Shown here in pieces: positions 23,933 through 57,590 of a DNA stretch of 64,000 nucleotides; the first letter of the stretch is position 1; every line of letters starts with the position of its first letter. The position numbers were made by a program, and so were the translations under genes. The stretch comes from Isurus oxyrinchus (Eukaryota): positions 93,868,001 through 93,932,000 of the forward strand of contig JANJGN010000021.1 in the NCBI GenBank assembly GCA_026770705.1. The letters are read 5' to 3'. The notes below the pieces were generated by a model, which saw nothing but the letters and a program-made list of their open reading frames with translations, had not been told where the DNA came from and searched no databases.

Positions 23933-24046
23933 GTTAAATGACTCCTGGATGTCAGCCTGTATATTTCAAAGGCCCCTTCAAACAAATTTGCATATTTAAT
24001 GGATCCAAGAACCCAATGTATACTTAAAGAACCGTCCGAACATCTA

Positions 24047-24402
24047 ATTCTTTCACGGGATGTGGACATCACTGGCAAGGCCAGCATTTGTTGCCCATCC
24101 CTAATTGCCCTTGAGCTGAGTGGTTTGCTAGGCCATGTCAGAGGGCAGTTAAGAGTCAGCCACATTGCTGTAGGTCTGGAGTCACGTGTAGGCCAGACTG
24201 GGTAAGGACATTAGTGAACCAGATGGGATTTTACAACAATCGATGATAGTTGTCTTGGTCACCACTACCGAAACTAGCTTTCAATTACAGATTTATTAAT
24301 TGAATTTAAATTCTACCAGCTGCTGTGGTGGGACTTGAACCCATGTCCCCAGAGCATTAGCCTGGGCCTGTGGATTGTTCGTCCAGCAACATTACCATCT
24401 CC
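24047..24402 (-). mobile_element. tRNA-derived SINE (SacSINE1/DeuSINE-like)
   Basis: B-box-like GGGTTCAAGTCCC on minus. Body shared with copies at 40507 and 51745. 3' tail (CAAGGGCAATTAGGGATGGGCAACAAATGCTGGCC) matches the local LINE tail. Confidence 0.8.
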
Positions 24403-25859: not shown

Positions 25860-27510
25860 ATTCTTTCATGAGATGGAAGTGTCACTAGCTGGGCCATCAT
25901 TTATTGCCCTTCCCGAATTGCCCTTGAGAAGGTGATGGTGAGCTGCCTTCTTGAACCGGTGCAGTCCTTGTGGTGTAGGTACACCCACAGTGCTGTTAGG
26001 GAGGGAGCTCCAGGATTTTGACCCAGCGACCGTGGAGGGGTGGTGATATATTTCCAAGTCCGGATGGTGAATGGCTTGAAAGGGAACTTCCCGGTGGTGG
26101 TGTTCCCATGTGTTTTCAGGTGGTAGAGGTCGCAGGATTGGAAGGTGCTTTTGACGGCTCCCAGGTGAGAACTGCAGTGCACCTCGTAAATGGCACCCCA
26201 TAGCCCCTGCGGACACTGCACACTGTTGGTGGAGGAAGTAAACGTTATGTAGGTGGGTAATTTGCCGATTATCCTGGATGATGTTGAGTTTCTTGAGTGG
26301 TCTTGTAGCCACACTCGTCATGCTCCTGACATGTGGCCTGTAAATGGTGGACAGGCTTTACAGAGCCAGGAGTTACTCATCGCAGAATTCCCACTATCTG
26401 ACCTGCTTTTGTAGCCATAATATTTGCATGGCTGGTCCAATTTAGTTTCTTATCACTGGCAGTCCCAGGGTGTTGATAATTGGAGATTCAGTGAAAGCAA
26501 TGCCACTGAATGTCAAAGGGAGACGATTAGATTCTTTCCTATTGGAGATGGTTAGTGCCTGGCACTTGTGTAGCACGAATGTTACTTGCCACTTCCCAAC
26601 CTAAGCCAGGAGGTTGTCCAGGTCTTGCTGCATATGGACATGACCTGCTTCAGTATCAGAGGAATTGCGAATGGTGCTGAACATAGTGCAATAACTAGTG
26701 AACTCCTCACTTGTGACCTTATGATGGATAGAAGATCACTGATGAAGCAGACAAAGATGTTTGAGCCTAGGACACCACCCTGAGGAACTCTGGCAGCAGG
26801 GGCTTAAAACGATTGGCCTTCAATGACTATAACTATCTTTCTTTGTGCTCGGTGTAACTCCAACCAATGGATGATCTCCCCCCTGGATTCCCATCAGCTT
26901 CATTTTTGTTAGGGGTCCTGAATGCTACAGTCAGTCAAATGCTGCCTTGATGCCTAGCTCATCTCTTGTGTTCAGCTTTTTTGTCAAGGTTTGACAAAGG
27001 CTCATCTGAGGTCAAGGGGCAAGTAGCCATGGCGGAACCCAAGCTGAGCATCAGTGAGCAGGCTACTGCTGTGTAAGTGCCACTTGATAGCACTCTGGAT
27101 GACCCCTTCCATCACTTTGCTGATGCTTAAGAGTAGGCTGATAGGGAGGTGCTTTAACAGATTAGATTTGTCCTGCTTTTTGCTTTAGATTCTAGATCTT
27201 TCTCTTTTATTCTAGACTCAGGTGTCTTTAGCCATTTCTTGACATCATGGGGAGTGAATCGAATTGGCTGAAGACTGGCATTTGTGACCCTGGGGACCAT
27301 GGGAAGAGGTTGAGATGAATCATCCAGTTGGCACTTTTTGCTGAAAAAGGTTACAAATACTCCAGCCTTGTCCTTCGCACTGGTGTGCTTGGGATTAAGG
27401 ATGGGGATACTTGTGGTGTCTCTTCCTCCGGTTGGCTGTTTAATTGATCACCACCATTGATGAGTGAATCCGGCAGGACTGAAGAGCTTAGATCTAATCC
27501 AGTCGTTCTG
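25860..27510 (-). mobile_element. Decayed CR1/L2-group LINE (family A), RT to 3' end
   Basis: Collinear with the 29809-32876 copy and shares its 3' tail. Confidence 0.85.
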
Positions 27511-28179: not shown

Positions 28180-29535
28180 TGAATTGTCCATTTTGGCAGG
28201 AAGAATAAAAAAGAAGCTTATTTTCTAAATGGTGAGAGATTGCAGAGCTCTGAGATTCAGACCGATTTGGGTGCCCTAGTGTATGAATCACAAAAGGGTA
28301 GTATGCAGGTAATTGGGAAAGCCAATAGAATGTTATCATTTATTGTGAGGGGAATTGATTACAAAAAGTAGGGAGGTTATGCTTCAGTTGTACAGGACAT
28401 TGGTGAGGCCATATCTGGAGTACTGCTTACAATATTGGTCTCCTTATTTAAAGAAAGATGTAAATGTGTTAAAAGCAATCCAGAGAAGGTTTACTAGACC
28501 AATACCTGGAATGGGCAGGTTGTCTTATGAGGAAAGATTAGACAGGTTAGGCTTGTATCCACTGAAGTTTAGAAGAGTAAGAGGAGACTTGGTTGAAAGC
28601 TTTATGTTCCTGAGGGGTCTTGACAGGGTGGATGTGGAAAGGTTGTTTCCTCTTGTGGAAGAATCTCAAACTCATTTAATCACTGTTTAAAAATAAGGGG
28701 TCACCCATTTAAGGCAGAGATGAGAATTTTTTTTCTCTCAGGGGGTAGGCACTCTTTCTTATAAGGCAGTGGAAGCAGAGTCTTTGAATATTTTTAAGGG
28801 AGAGCTGGATAGATTCTTGATAAACAAGGGGGTGAAAGGTTATCGGGAATAGGCAGGAATGTGGGGTTGAGGTTACAATAAGATCAGCCATGATCTTATT
28901 GAATGGCGGAGGAGGCTTGAGGGGCTGAGTGGCCTACTCCTGCCCCTAATTCGTATGTTCATATGTATGTAGTTGGAAAATGTAGATTAATTGAGGGAAA
29001 CCAGCAACATTTTTTTTAAAGTACAAATTGTGCTTAACTAACTTGATTGAGTTTTTGGTTAGGTAAGAGCAAGGGTTGATGAGGGCAATGCAATTGATGT
29101 GTACATAGACTTCCAAAAGGTGTTTGATAAGGTGCCTGGTAACAGGCTTGTAACAAAGTTGAAGCCCATGGGATAAATGGGACAGTGGCAGAAGAAGTAA
29201 TAAAATGACAGTGACAGGAAATAGAATTCTGGCGAAGGGAAGCTTTTTAGACTGGAGAACGATACACAGTGTGGCTAATCGGAATTGGTGTTGTCATTGA
29301 TCCATGTTAATGACCTAGACTTGGATGTGCAAAAAACAACCTGAAAATCACCCAATGGCACTAAACTTGCAAGCATTTTGAAATTTGAGGAGAATAGTAA
29401 TCGACTTCAAAAGAATATAGAGAGGCTAATGGAATGGGTGGATGCATGGCAGATGAAGTTTGATGCAGAACGGTTTGAAATGATTCATTATGGTAGGAAG
29501 ATCAAGGATTGGTGTTATAAACTAAAGGGTACATT
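28180..29535 (+). mobile_element. CR1 LINE fragments (family B)
   Basis: ORF 28355-28690 (LYRTLVRPYLEYC..QRRFTR..LSYEERL..RGDL) and a CR1 3' UTR with a TATG tail. A second RT fragment from ~28975 resumes at ~33410. Confidence 0.85.
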
Positions 29536-32500
29536 GTCATAAAATCGGTGTCAAAGCCGGTTTTCTTCAAACAGAAATTCTTTAGTCGTGGTGGAATTTC
29601 TTAATTGGCTTTCCTGGCTGTGATATTATTTCTGAGAAATTAGAGTCTTTCTCAGTTGCAAAGCAATGGACATTAATTGGGGTAAGTCAACAGGTTGAAG
29701 ATCTAATTTCAGCCTGTGGACAGACACAGGTGGGGATAAAAAGTGAAAACACAAGAGAGAACAGGACTGGATAGAGGTGTAAATTAGTGTGTGAGCTAAC
29801 TGAAAGGATTTCTTTTAGCCATTCACGGGAGGTGGGCTTCGCTAGCTGGGCCAACATTTATTTCCCATCCCTAGTTGCCCTTGAGAAGGCAGTGGTGAGC
29901 TGCCTTCTTGAACTGCTGCAGTCCCTGTGGTGTAGACACACCCACAGTGCTGTTAGGGAGGGAGTTCCAGGATTTTGACCCAGCGACAGTGAAGGAATGG
30001 CGATATATCTCCAAGTCAAGATGGTGAGTGACTTGGAGGGGAACTTCCAGGTGATAGTGTTCCCATGTATTCTCTGCCCTTGTCCTTCTAGATGATAGTG
30101 GTCATGGGTTTGGAAGGTGCTGCCTAAGGAGCCTTGGTAAATTCCTGTGGTGCATCTTGTAGATGGTCCACACTGCTGCTACTGTGTGTCGGTGGTGGAG
30201 AGAGTGAATATTTGTGGATGTGGTTCCAATCAATCGGCTGCTTTGTCCTGAATGGTGTCAAGCTTCTTGAGTGTTGTGGCAGCTGTGCTCATTCAGACAA
30301 GTGGGAAGTATTTCATTACACTCCTGACTTGTGCCTTGTAGATGGTGAACAGGCTTTGGGGAGTCAAGAGATGAGATACATGCCACAGGATTCCTAGGCT
30401 CTGACCTGCTCTTGTAGCCACAGTATTTATATGGCTAGTCCAGTTCAGTTTCTAGTCAATGGTAACCCCTAGGATGATGATAATGTGGGATTCAGTGATG
30501 GTAATTCCATTGAATGTCAAGGGGAAATGGTTAGATTTTCTCTTGTTGGAGGTGGTCATTTCCTGGCACTTGTGTTGTGCAAATGTTATTTGCCATTTGT
30601 CAGCCCAAGACTGGATGTTGCCCAGGTCTTGCTGCATTTGGACATGGACTGCTTAAGTATCTGAAAAGTCACGAATGATGCTGAACTTTGTGCAATCATC
30701 AGCGAACATCCCCGCTTCTGACTTTATGATGGAAGGAAGGTCATTGATGAAGCAGCTGAAGATGGATGGGCTGAGGACACTACCCTGAGGAACTCCTGCA
30801 GTGATGTCCTGGAGCTGAGATGACTGATCTCCAACAACCACAAGTATCTTCCTTTGTGCTAGGTATGACTCCAACCAGCGGAGAGTTTTCCCCCTGATTC
30901 CTGTTGGCTCCAGTTTTGCTAGGGCTCTTTGATGCCACACTCTGTCAAATGCTGTCTTGATGTCAAGTGCAATCACTTTTGCCTCAGGTCGGGAGTTCAG
31001 CTCTTCTGTCCATATTTGAAGTAAGGCAGTAATGAGGTGTGGAGCTGAGTGGCCCTGGCGGAACCCAAACTGGGTGTCAGTGAGCAGGTTATTGCTAAGC
31101 AAATGCCACTTGATGGCACTGTTGATGACCCCTCCATCACTTTACTGATGATCGAGAGTAGACTAATGTGGTGGTAATTGGACGGGTTGGATTTGTCCTG
31201 CTCTTTGTGTACAGAAAATACCTGGGCAATTTTCCTCATAGCCTCATGCTGGGGGCCTCCAGAGGAGGCTGAGATGGATCATCCACTCGGCACTCCTAGC
31301 TGAAGATTGTAGAAAATGCTTCAGCCTTATCTCTTGCACTGATATGCTGGGGTCCCCCATTATTGAGAATGGGGATATTTATAGAGCCTCCACCTCCAGT
31401 GAGTTGTTTAATTGTCCACCACCGTTCACGACCGGATGTGGCAGGACTGCAGAGCTTAGATCTAATCAGTTGTTTGTGGATTGCTCAGCTCTGTCTATCA
31501 CTTGCTGCTTATGCTGTTAGGCAGGCAAGTAGTCCTGTGTTATAGCTTCACCAGGTTGACGCCTCATTTTTAAGTATGCCTGGTGCTGCTCCTGGCATGC
31601 CCCCCTGCACTCTTCATTGAACTAGGGTTGATCCTGTGGCTTGATGCTAATGGTAGAGTGGAGTATGTGCCAGGCCATGAGATCACAGATTGTGTTTGAG
31701 TACAATCCTGCTGCTGCTGTTGGCCCACAGCGCCTCATGGATGCCCAGTCTTGAGTTGCTAGGTCCCATTTAGCATAGTGGTGCTGCCACACAACACGTT
31801 GAAGGGCATCCTTAATGTGAAGGCAGGACTTCATCTCCACAATGACTGTGCAGTGGTCACTCCTTCCGATACTGTCATGACAGATGTATCTACAGCAGGC
31901 AAGTCGGTGAGGATGAGGTCAAGTATGTTTTTCCTTCACTACCTGCCGCAGACCCAGTCTAGCAGCTATGTAATTTAGGACTCGGCCAGCTCGGTCAGTG
32001 GTGGTGCTACTGAGCCACTCTTCGTGATGGACATTGATTGAATTCCCCCATCCAGATTACATTCTGCGCCCTTGCCACCCTCAGTGATTCCTCCAAGTGG
32101 TTTTCAACATGGAAGAGCACTGATTCATCAGCTGAGGGAGGGCGGTACATGGTAATCAGCAGGAGGTTTCCTTGTCCATGTTTGACCTGATGCCATGAGA
32201 CTTCATGGGATCGAGAGTCGATGTTGAGGACTTCCGGTCAACTCCCTCCTGAATACGACTGTGCCACCACCTCTGCTGGGCTTATCTTGTCGGTGGGACA
32301 GGACATACCCAGGGATGGTGATGGTGGTGACTGGGACATTATCTGTAAGATATGGTTATGTGAGTATGACTATGTCAGGCTGTTGCTTGACTAGTCTGTG
32401 AGACAGCTCTCCCAAATTTTTGGATGAGCCCCTGGATGTTAGTGAGGAGGACTTTGCAATGTCGATAGGGCTGAGTTTGCTCTTGTTGTTTCCGGGGCCT

Positions 32501-33410
32501 AGATTGATGCCAGGTGGTCCATCCAATTTCATTCCTTTATTGAGTCTTTGTAGTGGTTTGATACAACAGAGTGGCCAGGCGACTTAAGAGTCAACCACAT
32601 TGCTGTGCGTCTGGACTCACATGTAGGCCAGGCCAGGTAAGGAAGTCAGATTTCCTTCCCTAAAGGACATTAGTGAGCCAGATAGGTTTTTACAACAATT
32701 GACAATAGTTTCATGGTCAATATTAGACTTTTTAATTCCAGATTTTTATTGAATTCCAATTCCACCATCTGCCATGGGGGGATTCAAACCCGGGTCCCCA
32801 GAGCATTACTCTGGGCCTCTGGATTGCTTGTCCAGTGACAATGCTAGCAGTAATACCACTACATCATCGCCTCCCCAAACTATTGAGACCCTAAATCTGT
32901 GTGAACAGATCAGATATGCTGTGGAGCTGAGAGATTTCTACCGGAGCTGACCATAACATGGATCTGGGGCACGAGTGGTCCGATGAAGGGAGCTCTAGAA
33001 AGTCCACGACATCCGGACTGTTGTGACCTGAGAGTGAGAGATTCCACAGTCGTGTGCCTTGTTGGAGGTGCCCCTTTCGATGGATCTGAGGGAACAAAAC
33101 CATTGTTGGAGACTTTATGAGGATCAGACATGTCATGATGAAGAGTGGTAGAATTCTACAGGGTAACCTGGGAAGGACTTTGGGACTTGCACATTGCATC
33201 ACCTATGGACTAGGAGCGTTGCCCGAGAAATGCATAGCATTTACCCCTGTTGAATCAGCTATGTAAAGTGTATACTCAAGACAGTTTTACTGTTAATTTA
33301 TGATTAATGTGTATTGATTTTAGTTGGATTGTTCCAGCAAAAGTTTTAAACATTGCAATCTTGTAGTTGTTTGGAAAGTTTGGCTTATTCACATTACTGG
33401 TCTCCACAAG
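29536..33410. mobile_element. Probable solo LTR (29536-29808 + 32877-33410) split by a LINE insertion
   Basis: Non-coding segment starting TGTCA and ending ..TCCACA. It interrupts a CR1 copy. No clear TSD. Confidence 0.5.
29809..32876 (-). mobile_element. Near full-length CR1/L2-group LINE (family A) with a tRNA-derived 5' head, APE endonuclease and RT; decayed, with internal deletions
   Basis: RT ORF 30653-31102 (QFGFRQGHS..LDIKTAFDRVWH..GVPQGSVLSP..FADD). EN region ~32000-32450 matches ORF 52439. A-box TGATGTAGTGG (32866-56) and B-box GGTTTGAATCC (32790-80). Confidence 0.88.
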
Positions 33411-34264: not shown

Positions 34265-35950
34265 AAATGGAGCAAATCGCAGACCTAAAAATATGTCAAC
34301 CGGTGAAGCTACAACATAGAACTGCATGCCAAACAACAGAAGCAGCATGTGCTAGACAGCGCTCAGCTTTCCGACAATCAATGGATCAGATCTATGCTCT
34401 GAAGTCCTGCCGCATCCAATTGTGCATGGTGGTGGACAATTAAAAAACTAAGAGGAGGAGGAGGCTCAACAAATATCACAACCCTCAATGATGGGGCAGC
34501 CCAGCATATCAGCCAAAAAGACAAGGCTGAAGCATTTGCAACCATCTTCAGCCAGAAGTGGATGATCCATCTCAGCCTCCTCCTGAGGTCCCCAGACTCA
34601 CAGATACTAGTCTTCAACCAATTCAATTCACTCCACGTGATATCAAGAAACGGCTGATGGCACTGGATATTGCACAGGCAATGACAATATTCCAGCAATA
34701 CTACTGAAGACTTGGGCTCCAGAATGAGCCAGGACCCTAGCCAAGCTGTTCCAATCCAACTACAACACTGGCATCTACCCGGCAATGTGGAAAATTGCCC
34801 AAGTATGCCGTGTCCATAAAAAGCAGGACAAATCCAGCCCGGCCAATTACTGCTGGTTGGAGTCATACCTAGCAGAAAAGAAGGTAGTAGTGGTTGTTGG
34901 AGGTCAATCACCTCAGTACCCAAGACATCACTGCAGGAGTTCCTCAGGGTAGTATCGTCAGCCCAACCATCGTCAGCTGCTTCATTAATGATCTTCCTTC
35001 TATTGTAAGGTGAGAAATGGGGATGTTCACTGATGATTGCACAGTGTTCAGCTTCACTCACAAATCCTTGCATACTGAAATAGCCCGTCCCCAAATGCAG
35101 CAAGACCTGGAACACATTCAGGCTTGGGCTGCTAAGTGGCAAGTCACATTCGTGCCACATAAGTGCCAGGCAATGACCACCCCCAAAAATAGATGATCGA
35201 ACCATCTCTCCTTGACATTTAATGACACTACCATCGCTGAATTTTCCACTGACAACATCGACCAGAAACTGAACCGGACCAGCCATATAAATACTGCGGC
35301 AACAACAGCAGGTCAGAGGCTGGGAATTCAGCCGATAGTAAATCACCTCCTGACTCCCCAAAGCCTACAAGGTCCACCATCTACAAGGTACAAGTCAGGA
35401 GTGTGATGGAATACTCCCCACTTGCCTGGATGAGTGCAGCTCCAACAGCACTCAAGAAGCTCAACACCATCCAGGATAAGTCAGCCCGCATGATTGGGAC
35501 CCCATCCATCACCTAAAACATTCACTTCCTCCACCACCGATATACAGTGGTAACAGTGTGTTCCATCTATAAGATGCACTGCAGCAACTCACCAAGGCTC
35601 CTTCGACAGCTCTAAACTCGCAACCTTGAACAGCTAGATGGACAAGAACAGCATCACCACACAAAGAACTAGCAGTGCCTCCTCTCTGCAATACCACCAG
35701 CTGCAAGCTCCCCTCCAAGCACACACCATCCTGACTTGGAAATATATCGCCGTTCCTTCACTGTCGCTGGGTCAAAATTCTGGAATTCTCTCCCTAACAG
35801 CACTGTGGGTGTACCTACACCACATGGACTGCAGCGGCTCAAGAAGGCAGCTCACCACCACCTTCTCAAGGGGCAATTAGGCATGGGCAATAAATGCTGG
35901 CCCAGCCAGTGACGTTCATACCTCATGAAAGAATAAATAATAATAAATTA
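34265..35950 (+). mobile_element. Decayed family-A LINE with internal deletion, intact 3' tail and (AATA)n
   Basis: GCAGGAGTTCCTCAGGGTAGT (VPQGS) motif; tail CAAGGGGCAATTAGGCATGGGCAATAAATGCTGGCC. Confidence 0.85.
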
Positions 35951-39959: not shown

Positions 39960-42290
39960 GGCGGAGTGGGGACAGCCCTGCTGGAAGCGGGTGAGGCTGG
40001 CACTCCTGCTCTGACCCCCTTCTGCAGAGCGATCTCGCAATAGCTGCCCTGTTACTGTCCAGAGGGTGATAGGGTAGCTGAGGCCATTCGCCAACTGGAG
40101 GCAGCGACTGACGTGGCATCCGTGGAATCAGCTGATGCGATAGAATGTTCTGGCACCATCTTGAAAGGGTTTTAAGTACTGGAGCCCTGCAGAGGACCTT
40201 CCCGTTTGCCAGCTGCTCACTACCTCCAAAGCTGCCTCAGGCGTGGATTTCCACCAGCTACTGACCATCTCTGTAGCCACATCAGACCCTGCAGTGCCTC
40301 CAGCCAGCAGTGTAGAAGCTGCCACAGGGAGAGCTGCCAAGGCAGCTGGAGGCACTTGCTAGCATGGCAAAAGGGAGATAGGTGGCCCCATCGTTCATTG
40401 ATGACTCACTGTACTTTCTCCTCAGGCTATTTGGGCAGAGCAGAAGGTCCACTTCCTGCTGGGAAATTGAGCAAGCCTGGTTGTGGAAGAGGTCAGAAAG
40501 CCATGCTTATTTGTTTGTGGGATGTGGGTGTCACTGGCCTGGCCAACATTTATTGCCCTTGTTCAAAGGGCATTTTTAAGAGCCAACCACATTGCTGTGG
40601 GTCCAGATGACAGATTTCCTTCCCTAAAGGGGCATTAGTGAACCAACAATTTATTGGTCACCATTAGACTTTTAATTCCAGATTTTTATTTAATTCAAAT
40701 TCCACCTGTTGCTGTGGTGGGATTCGAACCCAGGTCCCCAGAACACTAACCTGGGTCTGTGGATTACCAGTCCAGTGACAATACCACTAGGCCAATACCT
40801 CCCCTGGAGAACAGGGGCTGCCCTGGTGCCAGTGTGCCAATGGCCTTCTCCACTCTACCAGGGTGAGTACCACACACCTCGGTTCCCTTCAGATCTGTAA
40901 TTGGACAAGCGTGAGGGTGTGGGGTGTTAGGGAGGGAGAGCCTGCCATGTGGCTGGTGGTGGGATGAGGGGGTAGCATCTCCTTCAAAAGAATTGGCTGC
41001 AGATTGGTCAAGTCTGCCTCCCCCTCTGCTGGCAGCAAAGGGACAGCATAGGTACAAAAATTAAGAGAACACTTTAGTTGCACTTGGGCTTCACAGTTGA
41101 ATAGATAGTTAAGGTGGTGCCATTTGTGTCTAATTGTTTATTGTAATGAAGTTGTTATTTTGTTTTTTTCGAAATTTCCATCGCTCGCCTCAAGGGCAGT
41201 TTGGGAGGGAACTTGGCATGCATGGTCAATTTTCTGACTGTGCAGATAGACCAAGTGGCATTAGGCACAATGCCCTGGATTTGCAACCAAGTTGAGTGGT
41301 AACAGTGGAGGGTGAAGGTGGACCTTTATTTACCAGAAGGAGGTTGAGGGAAGGATCCTGTGAAGGGTGTATGTCTAAGCACCTCCCAAGCCTCCCTTGC
41401 ACTCATGTCACTGTGCCTCCAGGGGTCACCTCATGTCTTTCCAGATGCTGCGCCTAGTTGCGCAGAGCACAGCAGGCCATCACATTGCAGAAGACCTTCA
41501 TTGGGGCATACCGAAGTGCATCACCAGAATGATCTAGGCACTCTAAGCAGCTTCAGTTGAACTATGGCCTGCTAAATGATGGCTTGGGTCACAGTGTGTA
41601 AGGTCTTGCACTTCTCTGTTCCCGCCTAGAATTCCTCAACAGAGTCGGTAGCTAACTCTTTAATGGGCAGCTGTTTTCAGCAGGAATCCGCCCTTGTAGG
41701 CACGTGGTGGGGAGCGTAAAGCCCGGCATCTTGGAGCGTCTGAATATAAAGGTATCATAGATTCTCCCAGGGCACCATGCACACATCTGCAGGATCCACT
41801 GGCGTTGCCCGCACACCGGTGGTACATTGAGGGAATTAAATCCCTTTCTGTTAACGAAGACCACCGACTGGCCTTTAGGGGCCTTGAAGGCCACAAGCAG
41901 GCAGTTGATCACACCCTCCACCCGGAGGAATCGAACAATGGCCACTAAGCCTCTGTCTGTCTCTCTCTCTCTCTCTCTTTCTCTCAGCCTGACTGAATGG
42001 AACATTGTGTTAATGGATATATTGGATATAATGGTTGGCCCTGCTAAAGGGGGCATTGGCTACCCTCTTGACGTAGATGATTGGGGATGTCACACACGTT
42101 CCCAGTGGACATCCAGGAATTTTCTGGAGGCATAGAAATTTAGGCCTTGGTCAGTTCACTGTCAGTGGCTTTGTGGCTCGGAGGGTCAGGTCCCTGCCGT
42201 TGAACCAGATAATCTGCGTCCAAATGCTAATTCAGGACTTATTGACAATGGAAGGAGCATTCATGACGTAGCAAAAAAAAAATCCTACCC
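39960..42290. mobile_element. PIF/Harbinger DNA transposon remnant (minus-strand DDE transposase; probable plus-strand Myb/SANT ORF start)
   Basis: ORF 41652-42056 (VEGVINCLLVAFKAP..FVNRKGFNSLNV..CAWCPGRIYDTFIFRRS) matches the HARBI1/DDE_Tnp_4 pattern. APSFIDDSLYFLL (40382) resembles a Myb/SANT N-terminus. TIR-like AAAATCCTACCC at ~42279-90. Confidence 0.8.
40507..40804 (-). mobile_element. tRNA-derived SINE nested in the Harbinger remnant
   Basis: A-box TGGCCTAGTGG and perfect B-box GGTTCGAATCC on minus; same body and tail as the 24047 copy. Confidence 0.85.
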
Positions 42291-45699: not shown

Positions 45700-47020
45700 A
45701 CCCCAGGATTTTGATGGTGGGGCAAGAGCGATGGTAATGCCACTGAATGTCAAGGACGTCCTATGTTGTTAAAAAGCATCATTTCCAGGCACATGTGTGG
45801 CACACATATTACCATGTCACCTGCCACTTATCAGCCCAAGCCTGGAGGATTTCCAGGTCTTGCTGCATATAGGTACAAACATGTGGACAGTGTCTGAGGA
45901 GTAGCGAGTGGTATTGAACATTGTGCAAACAACAGGCCATTGATGAAGCAGCTGAAGATGACCGAGTACTTACCCGAGAAATTCCAGCTGTGATGTCCTG
46001 AGACTAAGGTGATTGGTCTCCAGCAACCACAGCCATCTTCCTTTGGGCGAGGTATGACTTCTGCCAGCGGAGAGTTTCCCCCCTGATTCCCATTGAATCC
46101 AGTTTTGCTAGGGCTCCTTGGCACAACGCTCTGTCAAGTGCTACCTCGGTGTCAACAGCCGTCACCCTCACCTCATCTCTAGAGTTCAGCTCGATTGTCT
46201 ATGTTTGGACCAAGGCTGTGATGAGGTCAGGAGCTGAGTGGCATTGCCCGAACCACAGCTGAGCAGTTCATTGCTGAGGAAGTGCTGCTTGATGGCAGTT
46301 GCAATAAAACCTGCCATCATTTTGCTAATAATTGAGATTAGACCGACGATGCAAAAATTGGCTGGATTGGACTTGCCCTGTTTTTTTGAAGACAGGACAG
46401 GTCTGGGTAATTTTACACATTTTCGAGTAGGTGCCAGTGTTGTGGCTGTGCTAGAATAGCTTGACTAGGGGCAGAGCTAGTTCTGGAGCATAAGTCTTCA
46501 GTACTACCGCCGATGTTGTCCAGCCTTATAGCCTTTCCGTATCAAATGCCTTCAGCCTTATCTTGCTCTCAGATGAAGTGAATCTTATTGGCTGAAGACC
46601 AATATCTGTGATAAAAACAGAAAGTGCTGGGAAAAAATTAATTGGACTCGAAGCGTTAACTCTGTTCCTTGCTTCACAGATGCTACCAGACCTGATGAGA
46701 TTTTCCAGCACTTTCTGTTTTTATTTCAGATCTCCAGTATTTTGATTTCCACTTACCAGTATTGGTGATGCTGGGAACCTCAGGAGGAGCCGAGATGGAT
46801 CAACAACATGGCACATTCTGGCTTGGAGGTGGTTGCAAATGCTTTAGCCTTGGCTTTTGCTGTGACGTGCTTGGATTCCCAATCATTGAGGGTGGAGACA
46901 TTTTGTGGAGCCTGTTCCTCTGGTTAGTTGTTTAGTTGTCCAACCCCATTCACGACTGGAAGCGGCAGGATCGTTAATCTGATCCATTGCTTGTGGGGTT
47001 GCTCAGCTCCATCCTACTTG
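45700..47020 (-). mobile_element. Older decayed family-A LINE fragment, with a Penelope-end palindrome inserted at ~46610-46745
   Basis: Collinear with ~30500-31500. Confidence 0.75.
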
Positions 47021-47364: not shown

Positions 47365-48270
47365 GCATAAGTACATAAGAAACAAGAGCAGGAGTGGGCC
47401 ATCCTCGGTCCCTCAAGCCTGCTTCGTCATTCAGTATAATCATGGTTGATTGGATTGTGGCCTTAACTCTACATTCCTGCCTGCCACCCATAACTCTTGG
47501 CTCTCTTCTACCAAAAATATGTCTAACTCAATCTTGAATATGGTGAATGATCCAGCCTTGAAAACTGTCTCGGGGAAGTGAATTCCTAAGACTAACAACC
47601 CTGTGAGAGAAGAAAGCCCTTTTCATCTCCCTCTTCAATGGGAGGCACCTTATTTAGAAACACTGCCCCCTGGTTCTAGACTGCCCCAAAAGGGGAAACA
47701 TCCTCCCAGCACCTATCCTTTCAAGGTCCTTCAGAATCGTGCGTTTCAATAAGATCAACTCTTATTATTCTAAACCCTAATGTGTATAGATCAACCCTGC
47801 TTAACCTTTCTTCATACGGCAACCCTTTCTTCCCAGCAATCAACCTGGTGAATCTTCTCTCAACTGCGTTCAATGCAGACATATTCCTTAAATTAGAGAG
47901 AAGAGCTGTTGGCAGTACTCTAGGTTTGGTCTCACCAATGCGCTGCACCATTGTAACAAGAAGGCCCTTCTTATATTTTATATATATTGAAATGGAGGCC
48001 AACATGCCATTTGCCTTCTTAATTGCCTGCTCTACCTGCATACCCTGCATACTGAGCTTTGTGAGTCACGTACAAGGTGAGCTTTTTTGTACCACAACAT
48101 TCTGCAGTCTCTCCCCAATTAGATTATATTCTGTCTTTCTATTCTTCCCACCAATGTGGTTAACCTCACTTTTTCCCACATCAAACTCCATCTGCCAAAT
48201 TTTTTTCCCAACTCACTTAAGTGAGTTATCCCATTGCAGACTCCCAAGTGCTTCCAAAGTGTCTGTTCCC
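47365..48270 (-). mobile_element. CR1 LINE 3' portion
   Basis: ORF 47721-48050 (IKKANGML..ERRFTRLI..YEERL) plus 3' UTR. Confidence 0.8.
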
Positions 48271-49331: not shown

Positions 49332-49971
49332 GGCCAGGATTTTATAACCCCGCTCCGGCAGATGAGGCGAGCCATTTAAATCTCCATTCAGTTCGACGGG
49401 ACCGTAATATCCAATCTCCATTCAGTTCGACGGGACCGTAATATCCAATCTCCATTCAGTTCGACGAGATCGTAATATCCAATCTCCATTCAGTTCGACG
49501 GGACCGTAATATCCAATCTCCATTCAGATCAGTGGGACTGTAATATCCAATCTCCATTCAGGTCAGTGGGACTGTAATATCCAATCTCCATTCAGGTCAG
49601 TGGGACTGTAATATCCAAGCTCCATTCAGTTCAGTGGGACTGTAATATCCAATCTCCATTCAGGTCAGTGGGACTGTAATATCCAATCTCCATTCAGGTC
49701 AGTGGGACTGTAATATCCAATCTCCATTCAGGTCAGTGGGACTGTAATATCCAAGCTCCATTCAGGTCAGTGGGACTGTAATATCCAATCTCCATTCAGG
49801 TCAGTGGGACTCTAATATCCAATCTCCATTCAGGTCAGTGGGAATGTAATATCCAATCTCCATTCAATTCAGTGGGACTGTAATATTCAATCTCCATTCA
49901 GTTTAGTGGGACTGTAATATCCAATCTCTATTCAGCTCAGTGGGACTGTAATATCCTGTGAAATCCTGGCC
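49332..49971. mobile_element. Harbinger-type MITE containing an internal minisatellite
   Basis: TIRs GGCCAGGATTT / AAATCCTGGCC. Confidence 0.75.
49379..49956. repeat. 34-bp minisatellite, 17 copies (AATCTCCATTCAGGTCAGTGGGACTGTAATATCC)
   Basis: Exact 34-bp period from 49379 to 49956. Confidence 0.97.
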
Positions 49972-50259: not shown

Positions 50260-51665
50260 TTCCTTAAACTTGGTCAGTTGTGCAGGACTTTGGTAGGACC
50301 ACTTCTAGAGTACAGTGTACAGTTGTTGCTCCTTAATTAAGAAAGGGTGTAAATGCGTTAGAAGGAGTTCAGAGGAGGTTCACCTGACTGATGTCTGGGG
50401 TGGGGTGGAGGGATGGGCGTTATCTTATGAGGAAAGATTGGACAGGCTGGGCCTGTATCCATTGGAGTTCAGAAGATTGAGAGGTGATCTTATTGAAAAA
50501 TATAAAATCCTGAATTGACTGGGTGGATGCTGAACAGATGTTTCCCCATATGGGAGAGACTAGGACTAGGGAACACAGTTTTAAAATAAGGGGTCTCCTA
50601 TCTAAGACAGAGATGAGGAGAATTTTATTTTCTCGGAGGGTTGTGAATCTTTGCACTCTCTTCCCCAGAGAGCAGAGGAGGCAGGGTCATTGAATATGTT
50701 TAAGGCAGTGTTAGATAGATTCTTGACTAACAAGGGCGTCAGACGTTATCGGGGATAGGCAGAATGTGGAGTTGAGGCCATAATTAGACCAGCCATGATC
50801 TTGAGGATTCTCAGGTCATGGCCAGTTCATATCAGATGCATAATTGTTTGTTCCAGATTATTCCGAATTGCCTGCAGATCAAGGGGACTAACAATGAACA
50901 CCCACGAATGGAAGATATTGGAGCAGGAGTAGGCCATATTGTCGCTCAAGTCTGCTCCGCCTTACAATACATGGCTGATCTTGGGCTTCAGCTCCATTTT
51001 CCCACCTGCTCCCCATATCCCTTAATTCCCTGAGAGACCAAAAATCTGTCTATCCCAGCCTTAAATATATTCAATGATGGAGCACCCACAACCCTCTGAA
51101 GTAAAGAATCCCAAAGATTCACAACCCTTTGAGTGAAGTAATTTCTCCTCATCTCCATCCTACATGATCGGCCCCTTATCCTGAGACTGTGCCCCCGTGT
51201 TTCAGACTCCCCGGCCAGCTGAAACAATCTCTCAGCATCCATGGGATCAACCCCCTTCAGAATGTTGTATTTTCAATGAGATCGCCTCTCATTCTTCTAA
51301 AATTCAGAGAACATCGGCCCAATTTACTCAGCCTCTCATCAAAGGACATCCCCCTCATCCCAGGGACCAACTTAGTGAACCTTCACTGTACCGCCTCCAA
51401 TGCAAGTATATCCTTCCTTAAATATGGAGACTAAAATGGCACACACTACTCCAGATGCAGGCGGGGATTTTTTGGCCCCGTCACGGGTGGGACCCACCGC
51501 GGGCGATGCAGTGCCCCAACCAGGAGTCCATTGACTTGTGGTGGGACAGAACATCCCGGCAGCGGGCGTATGTGGAAAATCTCGCCAGTGGTCTCACCAA
51601 AACCAGGCAGAACCGTAGCAAGACTTCTTTATCCGTGTACTCCAATCCTCTTGCAATAAAGGCCA
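50260..51665. mobile_element. Two CR1 3' fragments tail-to-tail (50260-50800 plus, 50905-51665 minus); ~125-bp MITE at 51460-51586
   Basis: ORFs 50315 and 50988 (RGHSLRIRG..RRNYFTQRVVNLWDSL). MITE TIRs GGCGGGGATTTT / AAAATCTCGCC. Confidence 0.8.
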
Positions 51666-51744: not shown

Positions 51745-51935
51745 TTTTCTTTATTCTTTCCTGGGGTCTGGTTGTCGCTGGCATGGCCAGCATTTGTTGC
51801 CCGTCGAATTTCACTTGAACTGAATGGATTGCCGTTTCTGAGGGCAGTTACGAGTCAACCACATTGCTGTGGATCTGGATTAGTATGTAAGCCAGAGCAG
51901 GTAAGGATGGCAGATTTCCTTCCCTAAAGGGCATT
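51745..51935 (-). mobile_element. 5'-truncated SINE (same family as 24047)
   Basis: Tail plus GAGTCAACCACATTGCTGTG body. Confidence 0.75.
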
Positions 51936-52339
51936 GATCATTGGGTAGATCTGAACTGGATGAAGTTTGACGCAGAAGGAAGGGAATAAAAGGAAAGAAG
52001 GAAGGTTTTAATCTGTAATAACTGGGACACTGAAGCACTAATGTGCTGGGTCATAGACTGGTCAGGGTATCAGCATTTCCCACTTACATTTCCTTTCCCA
52101 CTGCTGGTTATAGAGCAGGTTTGGCTGCATTTGATGGGCCGACAGTGAATCCCGCTCTTAGTTTCTAACATCCAATTTGTTTCAATTCAGTTAATTGTTT
52201 GTTTCTATTTCCTCTACAGAGGCCGATGGTTCCGAGCTGACCAATGTACAGACACTGGCCAAGGCTGGATCAGAGGGGAAATCCATAGAGATCATTTTTC
52301 TCCTCCTTTAGCTCATCCAAATCTCTTTAGAGATACACC

Positions 52340-55300
52340 AGACGGACCACCCGGCATCGACTTAGGCACCAGAAACGACAACGGCAATCTTAGCCCCGTC
52401 GATCCTGCAAAGTCCTCCTTACCCACACCTGGGGGCTCATGCCAAAATTGGGAAATCTGTCTCACAGACTAGTCAAGCAACAGCCTGACATAGTCATCCT
52501 CATGGAATCATACTTTACAGATAATGTCCCAGACACCACCATCACCATCCCTGGGTATGTCCTGTCCCACCAGCAGGACAGACCCAGCAGAGGTGGCAGC
52601 ACAGTGGTATACAGTCAGGAGGGATTTGTCCTGGGAGTCCTCAACATCGACTCTGGACCCCATGAAGTCTCATGGCATCAGGTCAAACATGGGCAAGGTA
52701 ACCTCCTGCTGATTACCATACCGCCCTCCCTCAGCTGATGAATCAGTGCTCCTCCATGTTGAACACTACTTGGATGGAAGCACTGAGGGTGGCAAAGGCG
52801 TAGAATGTACTCTAGGTGGAGAACTTCAATGTCCGTCACCAAGAGTGGCTCAGTAGCACCACTATTGACCGAGTTGGCTGAGTCCTAAAGGACATAGCTG
52901 CTAGACTGTGTCTGCAGCAGGTGGTGGGGGAACAAAAAGAGGGAAAAACATACTTGACTTCATCCTCACCAAGCTACCTGCCGCAGATGTATCTGTCCAT
53001 GAGAGTATCAGTTGGAGTGACAACCACAGAGATGAAGTTGGCCTTCTCATTGAGCATATCCTCCCTTGTGTTGTGTGACACTACCACCATGCTAAATGGG
53101 ATAGATTTCGAACAGATCTAGCAACTCAAGACTGAGCATCCATGAGGCGCTGTGGGCCATCAGCAGCAGCAGACTTGTACTCAAACCCAATCTGTAGCCT
53201 CATGGCCTGACTTATCCCCCATTCAACCATTACCATCAAGTCAGGGGACCAACCCTGGTTCAATGAAGAGTGCAGGAGGACATTCCAGGAGCAGCACCAG
53301 GCATACCTAAAAACAAGGTGTCAACCTGATAAAGCTATAACACAGGACTACTTGCCTGCCAGACAGCATAAACAGTGAGTGATAGGGCTAAGCAATCCCA
53401 CAACCAAAGGATCAGATCTAAGCTCTGCAGTCCTGCCACATCCAGTCATGAATAGAGGTGGACAATTAAACAACTCACTGGAGGAGGAGGCTCCACAAAT
53501 ATCCCCATCCTCAATGATGGGGGAGCCCAGCACATCAGTGTAAAAGATAAGGCTGAAGCATTTGCTACAATCTTCAGCCAGAAGTGCTGAGTGCATGACC
53601 CATCTCAGCCTCCTTCAGAGGTCCCCAGCATCACAGATGCCAGTCTTCAGCCAATTCAATTCACTCCATGTGATATTAAGAAATGGCTGAAGGCACTGGA
53701 TACTGCAAAGGCTATGGGCCCTGACAATATTAAGGCAATAGTACTGAAGACTTGTGATCTAGAACTTGCCGTGCCCCTAGTCAAGCTATTCCAGTACAGC
53801 TACAATCCTAGCATCTACCCAGCTATGTGGAAAATTGCCCAGGAGTCTCCTGTATACAAAAAGCAGGACAAATCCAACCCGGCTAATTACAGCCCCATCA
53901 GCCTACTCTCCATCATCAGTAAAGTAATTGAAAGGGTCATCAACAGTGCTATCAAGAGCACTTGCTCAGCAATAACCTGCTCACTGACACCCAGTTTGGA
54001 TTCTGCCAGGGCCACTCAGCTCCTGACCTCATTACAGCTTTGGTTCAAACATGGACAAAAGAGCTGAACTCCTGAGGTTAGGTGAGAGTACCTGCCCTTG
54101 ACATCAAGGCAGCATTTGACAGAGTTTGGTATCAAGGAGCCCTAGCAAATCTGGAGTCAATGGAAATCATGGGGAAAGCTCTCCGCTGGTTGGAGTCATA
54201 CCGAGCACAAAGGAAGATGCTTATGGTTTCTGGAGGTCAGTCATCTCAGCTCCAGGATATCACTGCAAGAGTTTGGATTTGGTAATGTGTAATGAGTCAG
54301 GTTTAACAAATTATTTCAGAGTAAAAGATACCCTCGGAAACAGTGATCATAACATGGTAGAATTCAGCATTCAGTCTGAGAGTGAGAAACTTGGGTCGGA
54401 AACAACTGTGCTAAACTTAAATAATGGTAATTACAAAGGAATGAGGACAGATTTAGCTGGAGTGGACTGGGAAAGGATTTTAGCAGAAAAAATGGTTGAT
54501 GAACAATGGCAGACGTTTAAGAAAATCGTTCTTGACTCATAACAAAGATATATCCCGGTGCGGAAGAAGGATTCAAGGAAGGGAATAAACCAACCATGGT
54601 TAACCAAGAAAATTAAGGATAGTATCAAATTAAAAGAGAAGACATACAATGTGACAAAGATTAGTGGTAAGCCAGAGGATTGGGAAAGTTTTAAAAATCA
54701 ACAAAAAAATGACCCAAAAAGAGGGAGAAAATAAATTTTGAGGGTAAACTAGGAAGTAATATAAAAACAGACAGTAAGAGCTTCCTTAAATATTTAAAAA
54801 GGAAGAGAGAGACCAAAGTGAACATCGGCCCCATACAGAATGAGGCTGGAAAAATAATAATGGAGAACCAGGAAATGACAGAGGAGTTGAATAAATATTT
54901 TGCTTCAGTCTTCACGGTAGAAGACACTAATAGCATTCCAATACTAAATAATCAAGGGGCAAAAGAGGGGGAGGAAATAAATACAATAACTATCACTGGA
55001 GAAAAATTACTAGGGAAACTAATGGGGCTAAAGGCCAATAAGCCCCCTGGACCTGATGGATTGCACCCTAGGATATTAAAGCGAGTAGCTACAGAGATAG
55101 TGGATGCACTGGTAGTAATCTTCCAAGAATCCTTTGATTCTGGAATAGCCCCAGAAGATTGTAAAGCTGCCAATGCAACACCCTTATTCAAAAAGGGAGG
55201 GGGACAAAAAACAGGTAACTATAAGCCAGTTAGCATAACATCTGCTATTGGGAAAATGTTAGAGTCTATTATAAAGGATGTAATAGCAGAGCATTTAGAA

Positions 55301-57590
55301 TTACACAATCTAATCAAGCAGAGTCAGCATGGCTTCATGAAGGGGAAATCATGCCTGATAAATTTATTAGAATTCTTTAAAGAGGTAATAAGCAGAATAG
55401 ATAAAGGGGAACCAGTAGATGTAATATATTTTGATTTTAAGAAAGGCATTCGATAAGGTACCACCTAAGGCTACTTAATAAGATAAGAGCCAGTGGTGTT
55501 TGGGGTAATATATTAGCATTGATCGAGGATTGGCTAACTAATAGAAGCCAGACAGTTGGGATAAAGGGAGCATTTTAAGGATGGCAATCTGTAACTAGTG
55601 AAGTGCCACAGGGACTGGTGCTGGGGCCTCAATTGTTTACAATATGTATCAATGACTTAGATGAGGGAAGTGAATGTACTAACACCAAATGTGTGGATGA
55701 TACAAAAATAGGTGGGAAGGCAAGTAGTGAGGATGACACAAAGAGTCTACAGAGGGATATAGGCAGGTTAAGTGAGAGGGAAAAAATATGGCAGACGGAA
55801 TATAATGTGGCAAAATGTGAGGTTATGCACTTCGGCAGGAAGAATAGAGGAGCTGAATATTATTTAAATGGAGAAAGGTTGCAGAAAGCTGCAGCACAGA
55901 GGGATTTGGGAGTCCTTGTGCATGAATCCAAAAAAGCTGACACACAAGTTCAACAGGGAATAGGGAAGGCAAATGGAATGTTGGTCTTTATTTCAAGGGA
56001 ACGGATTATAAAAATAGAGAAGTCTTGCTAAAACTATACTAGCAGACCACACCTAGAATGCTGTGAACGGTTTTGGACCCCTTATCTAAGGAAAGATGTA
56101 TTGGCATTGGAGGCAGTCCAGACAAGGTTCACTAGGTTGATTCCAGGCATGGAGGGATTTTCATATGAGGAGAGGTTGAGTAGGTTGGGGATGTATTCAT
56201 TGGAATTTAGAAAAAATGAGAGGCAACCTTATTGAAACAAAAAAGATTCTTAGGGGGCTTGACAGGGTAGATGCTGAGAGGTTGTTTCTCCTTGTGAGAG
56301 AGTCTAGGGCAAGAGGGCATAATCTCAGAGTAAGGGGACTCCCATTTAAAATAGAGGTGAGGAGAAATTTCTTCTCTCAGAGGTTAGTTAACCTGTGTAA
56401 TTCTTTACCGCAGAGGCTGTAGAAGCTGGCTCGTTAAGTATATTCAAGGTTGAGATAGACAGATTTTTAATCAGTTAGGGAATCAAGGGCAATGGGGAAA
56501 AGGAAGGAAGTTGATTATCAGATCAGTCATGATCTCATTGAATGGCATAGCAGACTCGATGGGTTGAATGGCGCACTTCTGCTCCTACACCTTATGGTCT
56601 TATTGGGTAGTGTCCTTGGGCCAAACATCTTCAGCTGATTCATCAATGACCTTCCTTCCATCATAAGGTCAGTAGTGGGGATGTTCACTGATGATTGCAC
56701 AATACTCAGCACCATTCAGGACTCCTCATATACTTAAGTAATCCATGTCCAATTGCCGCAAGACCTGGACAACATTCAGGCTTGGGCTGACAAGTGGCAA
56801 GTAATATTCGCGCCACACAAGTGATAGGCAATGACCATCTCCAACAAGAGAGAATCCAGCCATCACCCCTTGATGTTCAATGGCATTATCAACACTCAAT
56901 CCCCCACTATTAATATCCTGGGTGTTACCATTGACCAGAAACTGAACTGGACTAGCCATATAAATACTGTGGCTACAAGAGTAGGTCAGAGGCTGGGAAT
57001 CATGTAATGAGTAACTTACTTCCTGACTTCCCAAAGCCTGTCCACCATCTACAAGGCACAAATCAGGAGAGTGATGGAATACTCCCCACTTGTCTGGATG
57101 AGTGCAACTCCAGCAACACTCAAGAAGCTTGACAGCATCCACGACAAAGCAGCCCGCTTGGTTGGCACCATATCCACAAACATTCGCTCCCTCTACCACT
57201 GACGCACAGTAACAGCAGTGTGTACCATCTGCAGGATGCACTCCATGAATTCACCAAGGTTCCTTTGACAGCATTTTCCAAACACATGACCACCATCATC
57301 TAGAAGGACAAAGCAGATAGATGGGAACATCACCACCTGGAAGTTCCCCTCCAAGCTACTCACCATCCTGACTTGGAAATATATCGTCATTCCTTCACTG
57401 TCACTGGGTCAAAATCCTGGAACTCCGTCCCTAACAGCACTGTGGGTGTACCTATACCACATGGACTGCAGAAGGTTCAAGAAAGAAGCTCACCACCACC
57501 TTCTCAAGTGCAACTAGGGATGGGCAATAAATGCTGGCCCAGCCAGCGAACCCCCACCCCCCCCCCCCCAACCATAAATGAAAAAAACAA
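52340..57590 (+). mobile_element. Family-A LINE (EN+RT+3' tail) split by a CR1 insertion at 54274-56604
   Basis: ORFs 52439 (PDIVILMES..DRPSRGG), 53591 (KAMGPDNI..KQDKSNPANYSPISLLS) and 54082. Resumes GGGTAGTGTCC at 56605. Confidence 0.9.
54274..56604 (+). mobile_element. Relatively young CR1 LINE (5'-truncated) nested in a family-A LINE
   Basis: ORFs 54818-55456 (PGPDGLHPRILK..QHGFMKGKSCLINLLEFF..YFDF), 55603 (PQGLVLGP..VDDT) and 56216; CTTATGGT tail. Confidence 0.92.

Follow-up and report, generated by a model that had tools for sequence, protein, structure and literature searches.

A 64,000-nucleotide stretch of the genome of the shark Isurus oxyrinchus (positions 93,868,001 to 93,932,000 of contig JANJGN010000021.1, assembly GCA_026770705.1), hereafter the window, carries on its minus strand, at 29809..32876, a decayed full-length copy of a long interspersed nuclear element (LINE) that opens with a tRNA-like head shared with local short interspersed nuclear elements (SINEs). 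The window is part of a 118-Mb contig in a genome of 4.98 Gb. The element is Zenon, of the CR1 group, and as such is already catalogued; no description of its head, its avoidance of terminators, its missing AUG or its SINE derivatives was found in the literature searched. We confirmed that this is a real and family-wide feature, a known family with an undescribed architecture. [quoted passage not shown]

Positions below are those of the window, and all features of the element lie on the minus strand. The term "majority n" denotes a position along the majority of 31 aligned copies, comprising the window copy and 30 of 39 copies fetched from the genome; the other nine were omitted for large insertions, deletions or rearrangements. 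The window copy differs from the family majority by 9.1% (family length about 3.27 kb) and starts at 32876, the sharp 5' end of the family. Its tRNA-like head (32770..32876) contains the A and B boxes of a Pol III promoter, which the preliminary description had reported at the minus-strand start and which we located by sequence at 32856..32866 (majority positions 11-21) and 32780..32790, respectively. The B box is CpG-decayed in most copies and intact, as GGTTCGAATCC, in the majority of the LINE copies with one head type (LINE_B) and in three published consensuses. The SINE-type body (32565..32769), putatively of the Deu type, is common to all local SINE subfamilies. It is followed by a LINE-only linker (32456..32564), a basic N-terminal extension in the endonuclease frame without an in-frame AUG; the AUG at 32532 is out of frame and not conserved. 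The single endonuclease and reverse transcriptase (RT) frame occupies 29871..32455. Its endonuclease motif starts at about 32455, some 110 nt after the end of the SINE-like part (32565), and RT follows, in agreement with the earlier claim that coding sequence is reached within about 100 nt and leaves no room for a first reading frame (ORF1). The RT of the window copy matched Pfam RVT_1 (E 8e-22), and the endonuclease matched Exo_endo_phos and Exo_endo_phos_2, the former in a sister copy. The element closes with a 3' tail common to LINE and SINEs (29816..29885), a predicted stem-loop followed by an A-rich end, and these last 70 nt or so (29885-29816) equal the SINE tail at 83-89% identity, as had also been proposed. 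The window copy is dead: frameshifts and stops break its reading frame, a private 189-nt deletion at 31243..31246 removes majority 1654-1842, some 13 further indels are of smaller size, and there are three T4 runs not present in the family majority.

The join between head and endonuclease, first noted at this one locus, recurs throughout the genome. Using the head plus the start of the endonuclease as a query, we scored 40 of 13,548 candidates, and all 39 non-self hits, located on many chromosomes, spanned the join. Head, endonuclease and RT were present in all 39 fetched copies, and the tail was reached in 34 of them within the 4.8 kb fetched. Because this set had been selected for the join, a second sample was drawn with RT only (40 of 150 listed RT matches, namely the top 35 and five with long frames). 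Twelve of these extend to majority 331 or further upstream: one breaks off at 331, and the other 11 continue into the head. The remaining 28 are cut at 521-1857 with no head abutting. Copies of the older head type gave 52 exact pattern matches to the join, versus 0 in a reversed control, and the same join is read through by predicted proteins of the horn shark (P0123) and the whale shark (P0122). The first 24 nt are kept in 26 of the 40 join-selected copies and their upstream flanks are unrelated; among the 42 copies with both ends, most have A-rich ends that are not microsatellite. Neither a join confined to this locus nor another 5' untranslated region or ORF1, both considered in the preliminary description, was found in any examined copy reaching the endonuclease start. 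The unit of head, endonuclease, RT and tail has moved as a whole.

Two simpler origins of this structure were rejected because of how the RT-picked copies are built. SINE heads are very abundant in the genome, and one might have landed by chance at a single locus and been fused by deletion; this is refuted by the join in the 39 other scored hits, in the 52 older-head matches (0 in the reversed control) and in five other species. A LINE inserting site-specifically at the body/tail join of a SINE, with head and tail as its target, would give full-length copies the same succession of head-body, LINE and tail, and target-specific LINEs of Pol III genes do exist. That scenario has next to no probability left, since 5'-truncated copies, both in the window and among the RT-picked sample (28/40), keep the tail with no head abutting, and the ORF itself extends into the tail (ORF end at majority 3214, tail start at 3203).

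The same organization is found outside this genome. Zenon LINEs have been described in sharks and rays as elements without ORF1 and with a poly(A) tail (Stuart et al. 2026, PMC13343379), and the elasmobranch consensuses in that work (CarCar_Zenon-1, RhiTyp_, ScyCan_ and HypSab_Zenon-1, SquAca_Zenon-1 to -3) represent the same family, being about 3.3 kb long, lacking ORF1 and ending in an A-rich tail. We compared the first 400 nt of each consensus by eye. The head opens all seven, which come from five species including a ray, and each of them crosses this join as well. Over its first 400 nt, CarCar_Zenon-1 is almost identical to our family majority, and this includes the head. Consensuses from coelacanth and hagfish have no head in their first 400 nt, the coelacanth 5' end being of low confidence. 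In the accessible portions of PMC13343379, the main text does not mention tRNA, polymerase III or Deu, and the supplement mentions neither tRNA nor SacSINE. No prior account of a tRNA-headed or Pol III-transcribed LINE, or of the SINE link, was found in the literature searched, outside which lie Repbase, Dfam and most subscription journals.

More distant relatives likewise appear to be headless. Among named proteins, those closest to the element come from sharks (Heterodontus, Carcharodon, Rhincodon). Outside sharks, the nearest ones have 40-49% identity, are for the most part 930-1000 residues long and are encoded on 3-4-kb contigs. No head or body was found by nhmmer in 160 related invertebrate loci. 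ARAGORN, run on 60 of the 80 metagenome loci, reported no tRNA-like head in any of them, and the B-box pattern had one isolated match in 80. No relatives were found in viral contigs. In a quick tree built without named clade references, the element groups with ORFs of invertebrates and stands separate from its own genome's CR1. Since the head is absent from these relatives, it must have been acquired at some time, and its absence from other Zenon-like elements suggests that it was probably first captured by a Zenon LINE from a SINE.

Having established the architecture of the LINE, we turned to the SINEs of the window, which also lie on the minus strand. The SINE_A copy (24046..24397; 73% to the window LINE) joins head and body to the tail with a 1-nt overlap between the LINE ends. 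The SINE_B copy (40507..40804; 79%) has the head of the younger LINE type and a join 23 nt upstream of that of SINE_A. The third (51745..51935) is 5'-truncated to the body end and tail, with 51841-51935 sharing the LINE body. The body that the preliminary description had assigned to the SINEs at 24047, 40507 and 51745 is thus shared by the first two, but the third is headless, and the SINE join it quoted holds for the subfamily of the copy at 24047 but not for that at 40507. Local SINEs share their tRNA head and LINE-type tail with the DeuSINEs of the SacSINE1 type in sharks and rays, which have a conserved body in between; the local SINEs may resemble SacSINE1 itself in sequence. The partner LINE of SacSINE1 has been given as L2-2_CM (Luchetti et al. 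2017, PMC5499810) and as CR1-4_DR-like (PMC3747384), in both cases from tail homology only.

Across 30 aligned copies, SINE_A is made up of the LINE's 5' part and last 70 nt, which overlap by 1 nt and leave no part of the SINE unaccounted for; copies are 9-17% from their majority, and the join is common to nearly all of them. SINE_B accounted for 22 of the 30 loci retrieved with the copy at 40507 and differs from SINE_A in its head. The 52 older-head matches mentioned above are LINEs with the head type of SINE_A. The head columns pair the two LINE types (LINE_A and LINE_B) with SINE_A and SINE_B, respectively, by 21 to 1. Among 51 distinct old-type LINE loci, 20 have an internal deletion of more than 500 nt. 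In 12 of these 20 the deletion brings the head together with the last 70-220 nt, no two of them at the same point. One join is that of a family. Elements of about 490 nt join majority 340 to 3121 at a shared GAA (3-nt microhomology), and this join was spanned by 34 of 39 non-self hits. Sixteen of 20 fetched copies share it exactly, with unrelated flanks and A-rich ends, and several begin at the first bases of the head. As this family contains 37 nt of LINE-only 5' sequence as well as the last 30 or so codons of the ORF, and hence LINE-only sequence on both sides of its join, it can only derive from the LINE. A tight pattern for a 350-to-3119 join had two matches, which do not establish a family. 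A head-to-tail join of majority 324 to 3109, seen in two loci (L451, L454) with identical flanks, is a segmental duplicate. Joins other than 340-to-3121 among the old-type loci may reflect deletion after insertion. The composition of the 490-nt family demonstrates that internal deletion of the LINE made a mobile SINE in this one case, and the SINE_A and SINE_B types of the window likely arose in the same way. Head capture and internal deletion, which the preliminary description had offered as alternatives, are not exclusive of each other: deletion accounts for the 490-nt family and likely for SINE_A and SINE_B, and capture would have preceded it.

The direction could also have been the reverse. 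SINE_A and SINE_B would then be ordinary SINE lineages, the LINE would have captured the head and later re-captured it or undergone gene conversion, and only minor families would be products of deletion. Such a course fits the lack of the head in the 160 invertebrate relatives and, over the first 400 nt, in the consensuses of hagfish and coelacanth, and chimaera and coelacanth are reported to have relatives of shark DeuSINEs (PMC5499810). A SINE parent that lost 23 nt could have given SINE_B, and the SINE_A tail has states unlike those of both LINE majorities. On the other hand, the LINE departs from SINE_A exactly where the LINE-derived tail starts (1-nt overlap), which would be rare for capture at an arbitrary point, the 490-nt family cannot come from a SINE, and the 51 old-type LINE heads include 12 that pass into the last 70-220 nt at differing points. 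We regard the reversed direction as possible, at a chance of about one in three, and descent of the SINEs from the LINE as the better reading.

The majority has one endonuclease and RT frame of 969 codons from stop to stop (308-3214) and no ORF1, as 412 nt precede the endonuclease and the longest frame there is of 82 codons. There is no in-frame AUG ahead of the endonuclease, the first in-frame Met being codon 285, beyond that domain. Beyond an in-frame AUG at majority 281 there are stops, which vary from one subfamily to another. A further AUG, at majority 336, lies out of frame. We considered this second AUG with a frameshift as a start, and it was not supported, the oldest group lacking it and its stop being lost in some subfamilies. 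From majority 392 onward, shared variants are conservative in the endonuclease frame; shared non-CpG variants comprise 37 synonymous versus 28 non-synonymous, and the codon differences between old and young majorities comprise 39 synonymous and 17 non-synonymous. These substitution patterns demonstrate that the ORF has been under purifying selection while carrying the head. Several of the closest invertebrate-type proteins (P0004-P0007, P0011, P0015) begin at or inside the first endonuclease strand or without Met, and given these starts the missing AUG may predate the head.

Transcription by Pol III is likely because the head is tRNA-like and T-run stops are absent. The A box at +11 and the B box at +75 have tRNA-like spacing near a fixed 5' end. 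The claim that the head is tRNA-derived held in part: relaxed-threshold ARAGORN gave a sense-strand tRNA-like fold in 19 of 40 copies, versus 3 of 400 shuffles and 0 of 80 ORF stretches, but neither standard ARAGORN nor Rfam calls it a tRNA. The 5' region gave no meaningful Rfam match to a ribozyme or known RNA, nor did 16 relatives. Human Pol III terminators comprise T4 and the weaker T3VT2, T2VT3, T3VT, TVT3 and T2VT2; T2GT2 and T3 on its own have almost no activity (Orioli et al. 2011, PMC3141230). We counted T4, T3VT2, T2VT3, T3VT and TVT3 by these definitions. The sense strand of the majority (31 copies, 3,270 nt) contains none of them, which includes the T4+ runs that the preliminary description had suggested looking for. 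Base shuffling predicts 10.4 (0 of 3000 shuffles reached zero), a first-order Markov model 5.3 (P 0.001) and a shuffle of the same codons 5.0 (P 0.001). The matching A, C and G motifs have observed/expected counts of 30/32, 27/32 and 19/18, and the antisense strand carries 30 terminators. Both of the only two T2VT2 motifs in the majority are T2GT2, and TTT has the lowest observed/expected (O/E) ratio of the 64 triplets (4 vs 17.9; 0.22). The older subfamily majorities also lack T4. As a control, the majority of a CR1 family from the same genome (20 copies) has 5 T4 in 2.3 kb, and among 160 related loci, every one of the 134 ORFs that reach 500 codons contains T4, the lowest motif O/E being 0.65 and the median 1.14.

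Pol II could instead be the polymerase of a headed LINE, using a cryptic promoter within the head or body or reading through from host genes. The avoidance of T-runs would then serve another end, such as preventing pairing of U-tracts with the poly(A) tail, stabilizing the RNA or excluding cryptic splice acceptors. LINEs are assumed to be Pol II units in the accessible text of PMC5786205, a capped RNA would be more easily translated, and the CR1 control is itself mildly T-run-depleted under the same null. We consider this explanation less likely in view of the sharp 5' end about 10 nt ahead of the A box with no common upstream sequence, the strand-specific depletion of terminators down to zero, and the absent in-frame AUG, which suits cap scanning poorly. 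Moreover, L250, a poly(A)-tailed relative that belongs to the same 99%-supported clade and equals the element in T content, has an O/E of 0.88 and an early in-frame Met.

Several observations weigh against our interpretation of a Pol III-transcribed parental LINE. Target-site duplications, which the preliminary description expected to enclose the unit, were not consistently present among the 42 copies (of 46) with both ends. Ten of the 21 head columns that pair LINE and SINE types coincide with the motif by which LINE_A was selected (the other 11 do not), the tail states of SINE_A are found in neither LINE majority, and tails track the pairing less cleanly than heads. The absence of T4 is not significant by itself (P 0.08-0.15). 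The terminator signal depends on the degenerate motifs, which were defined for human Pol III, and on TTT; the resampling null predicts too many T-runs for the CR1 control as well (O/E about 0.7), and triplets containing TpA or CpG are also depleted. Old subfamilies differ by merely 2-7% and are therefore not independent replicates, and the oldest group (five copies) has one TATTT at a depth of about 3. The translation of an uncapped 3.3-kb RNA is unexplained. Finally, a protein-coding LINE transcribed by Pol III is inferred from sequence; we lean towards it nevertheless.

Similar arrangements are known from other elements. R2 has a single ORF, is made by a polymerase other than Pol II and yields an uncapped RNA with non-AUG translation, and the scheme proposed for Zenon would be alike in each of these respects. 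R2 is co-transcribed from ribosomal DNA by Pol I, is site-specific and uses a ribozyme and a restriction-like endonuclease. Unlike R2, the Zenon element has its own putative internal promoter, an APE endonuclease, dispersed insertions and no Rfam ribozyme match. Elements formed by internal deletion are reported to arise from R2 as well (PMC3414825). Bipartite non-autonomous LINEs and SINEs (derivatives of RTE, Vingi, Ingi and R2; Bov-tA) similarly consist of the 5' and 3' ends of a LINE brought together by internal deletion (Kojima 2018, PMC5786205). In its accessible portion, that paper names no sources of ORF-less bipartite elements other than RTE, Ingi, Vingi and R2, and it treats the deleted parent LINE as a Pol II unit, which would acquire a Pol III head through a subsequent template switch. 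The Zenon parent, a member of the CR1 group, already carries the head, and therefore one deletion gives a SINE, unlike in those cases.

The window and the database searches yielded further observations. Additional Zenon copies of the same family occur in the window at 25860-27510, 34279-35934, 45701-47009, 52337-57554 and 58038-60623, all 5'-truncated and 73-92% identical to the majority. The one at 52337-57554, whose first base corresponds to majority 341, is in two parts, and the gap between them contains a CR1 piece (55743-56603). Old copies (25882, 45701) were considered as a deeply diverged sister subfamily, and searches with them gave just the same family at 70-79%. CR1-type 3' pieces, used as the control above, lie at 55743-56603, 28189-28964, 47366-48243 and 50274-51456; none of the 20 fetched CR1 copies shares more than about 2.7 kb with the others, unlike many full-length Zenon copies. 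A 26-nt satellite occupies window positions 1-23127 (about 884 copies, 82% match), and a 34-nt array of 17 copies lies at 49379-49956. Among predicted shark proteins (P0121-P0132), CWC25, TAFA-5 and an immunoglobulin-domain gene model contain pieces of the LINE, which are probably gene-model errors. The 80 best matches in a collection of prokaryote genomes (L250-L329) are LINE ORFs at 31-39% identity, many in metagenome-assembled genomes of symbionts (Sedimenticola, Thiodiazotropha), and are likely host DNA contaminating the bins. In a run labelled as a coral metatranscriptome (X10), 4,394 contigs map along the whole shark element (L033:900-4300). Their variant pattern is that of a run from organism D, and contamination or mislabelling is likely.

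We propose the following course of events. Before the divergence of sharks and rays, an ancestral Zenon would have taken over the head of a SINE. TFIIIC would bind the A and B boxes, and Pol III would read through the element until the first T-run of the flanking DNA stops it. Translation of the uncapped RNA would begin at a non-AUG codon, or through re-initiation, within the region 330-412, and the protein would bind the predicted 3' stem-loop and prime reverse transcription at the A-rich end. A deletion that spares both ends spares the promoter and the RT-binding site, and thus leaves a ready-made SINE. In its fullest form, the proposal would describe an autonomous coding retrotransposon made by Pol III as a 3.3-kb unit, which has kept a tRNA-type promoter since before the shark/ray split, purged even weak terminators from a 969-codon ORF, relies on uncapped AUG-less translation and has repeatedly given rise, in one step, to the main SINE families with tRNA heads in sharks. 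We see the chances of this full version as evenly balanced.

The textbook division assigns Pol II to coding LINEs and Pol III to short non-coding SINEs. Deletion of a headed LINE would place a one-step route to SINEs beside the two-step route proposed by Kojima 2018, and for it there is a multi-copy example with a readable join. Shark repeat libraries may be scoring the 5' ends of an abundant Zenon LINE as SINEs. If our interpretation is true, a natural 3.3-kb Pol III transcript encodes an enzyme of about 940 residues, and both the translation of Pol III RNA and the shaping of a coding sequence by terminator avoidance would become directly testable.

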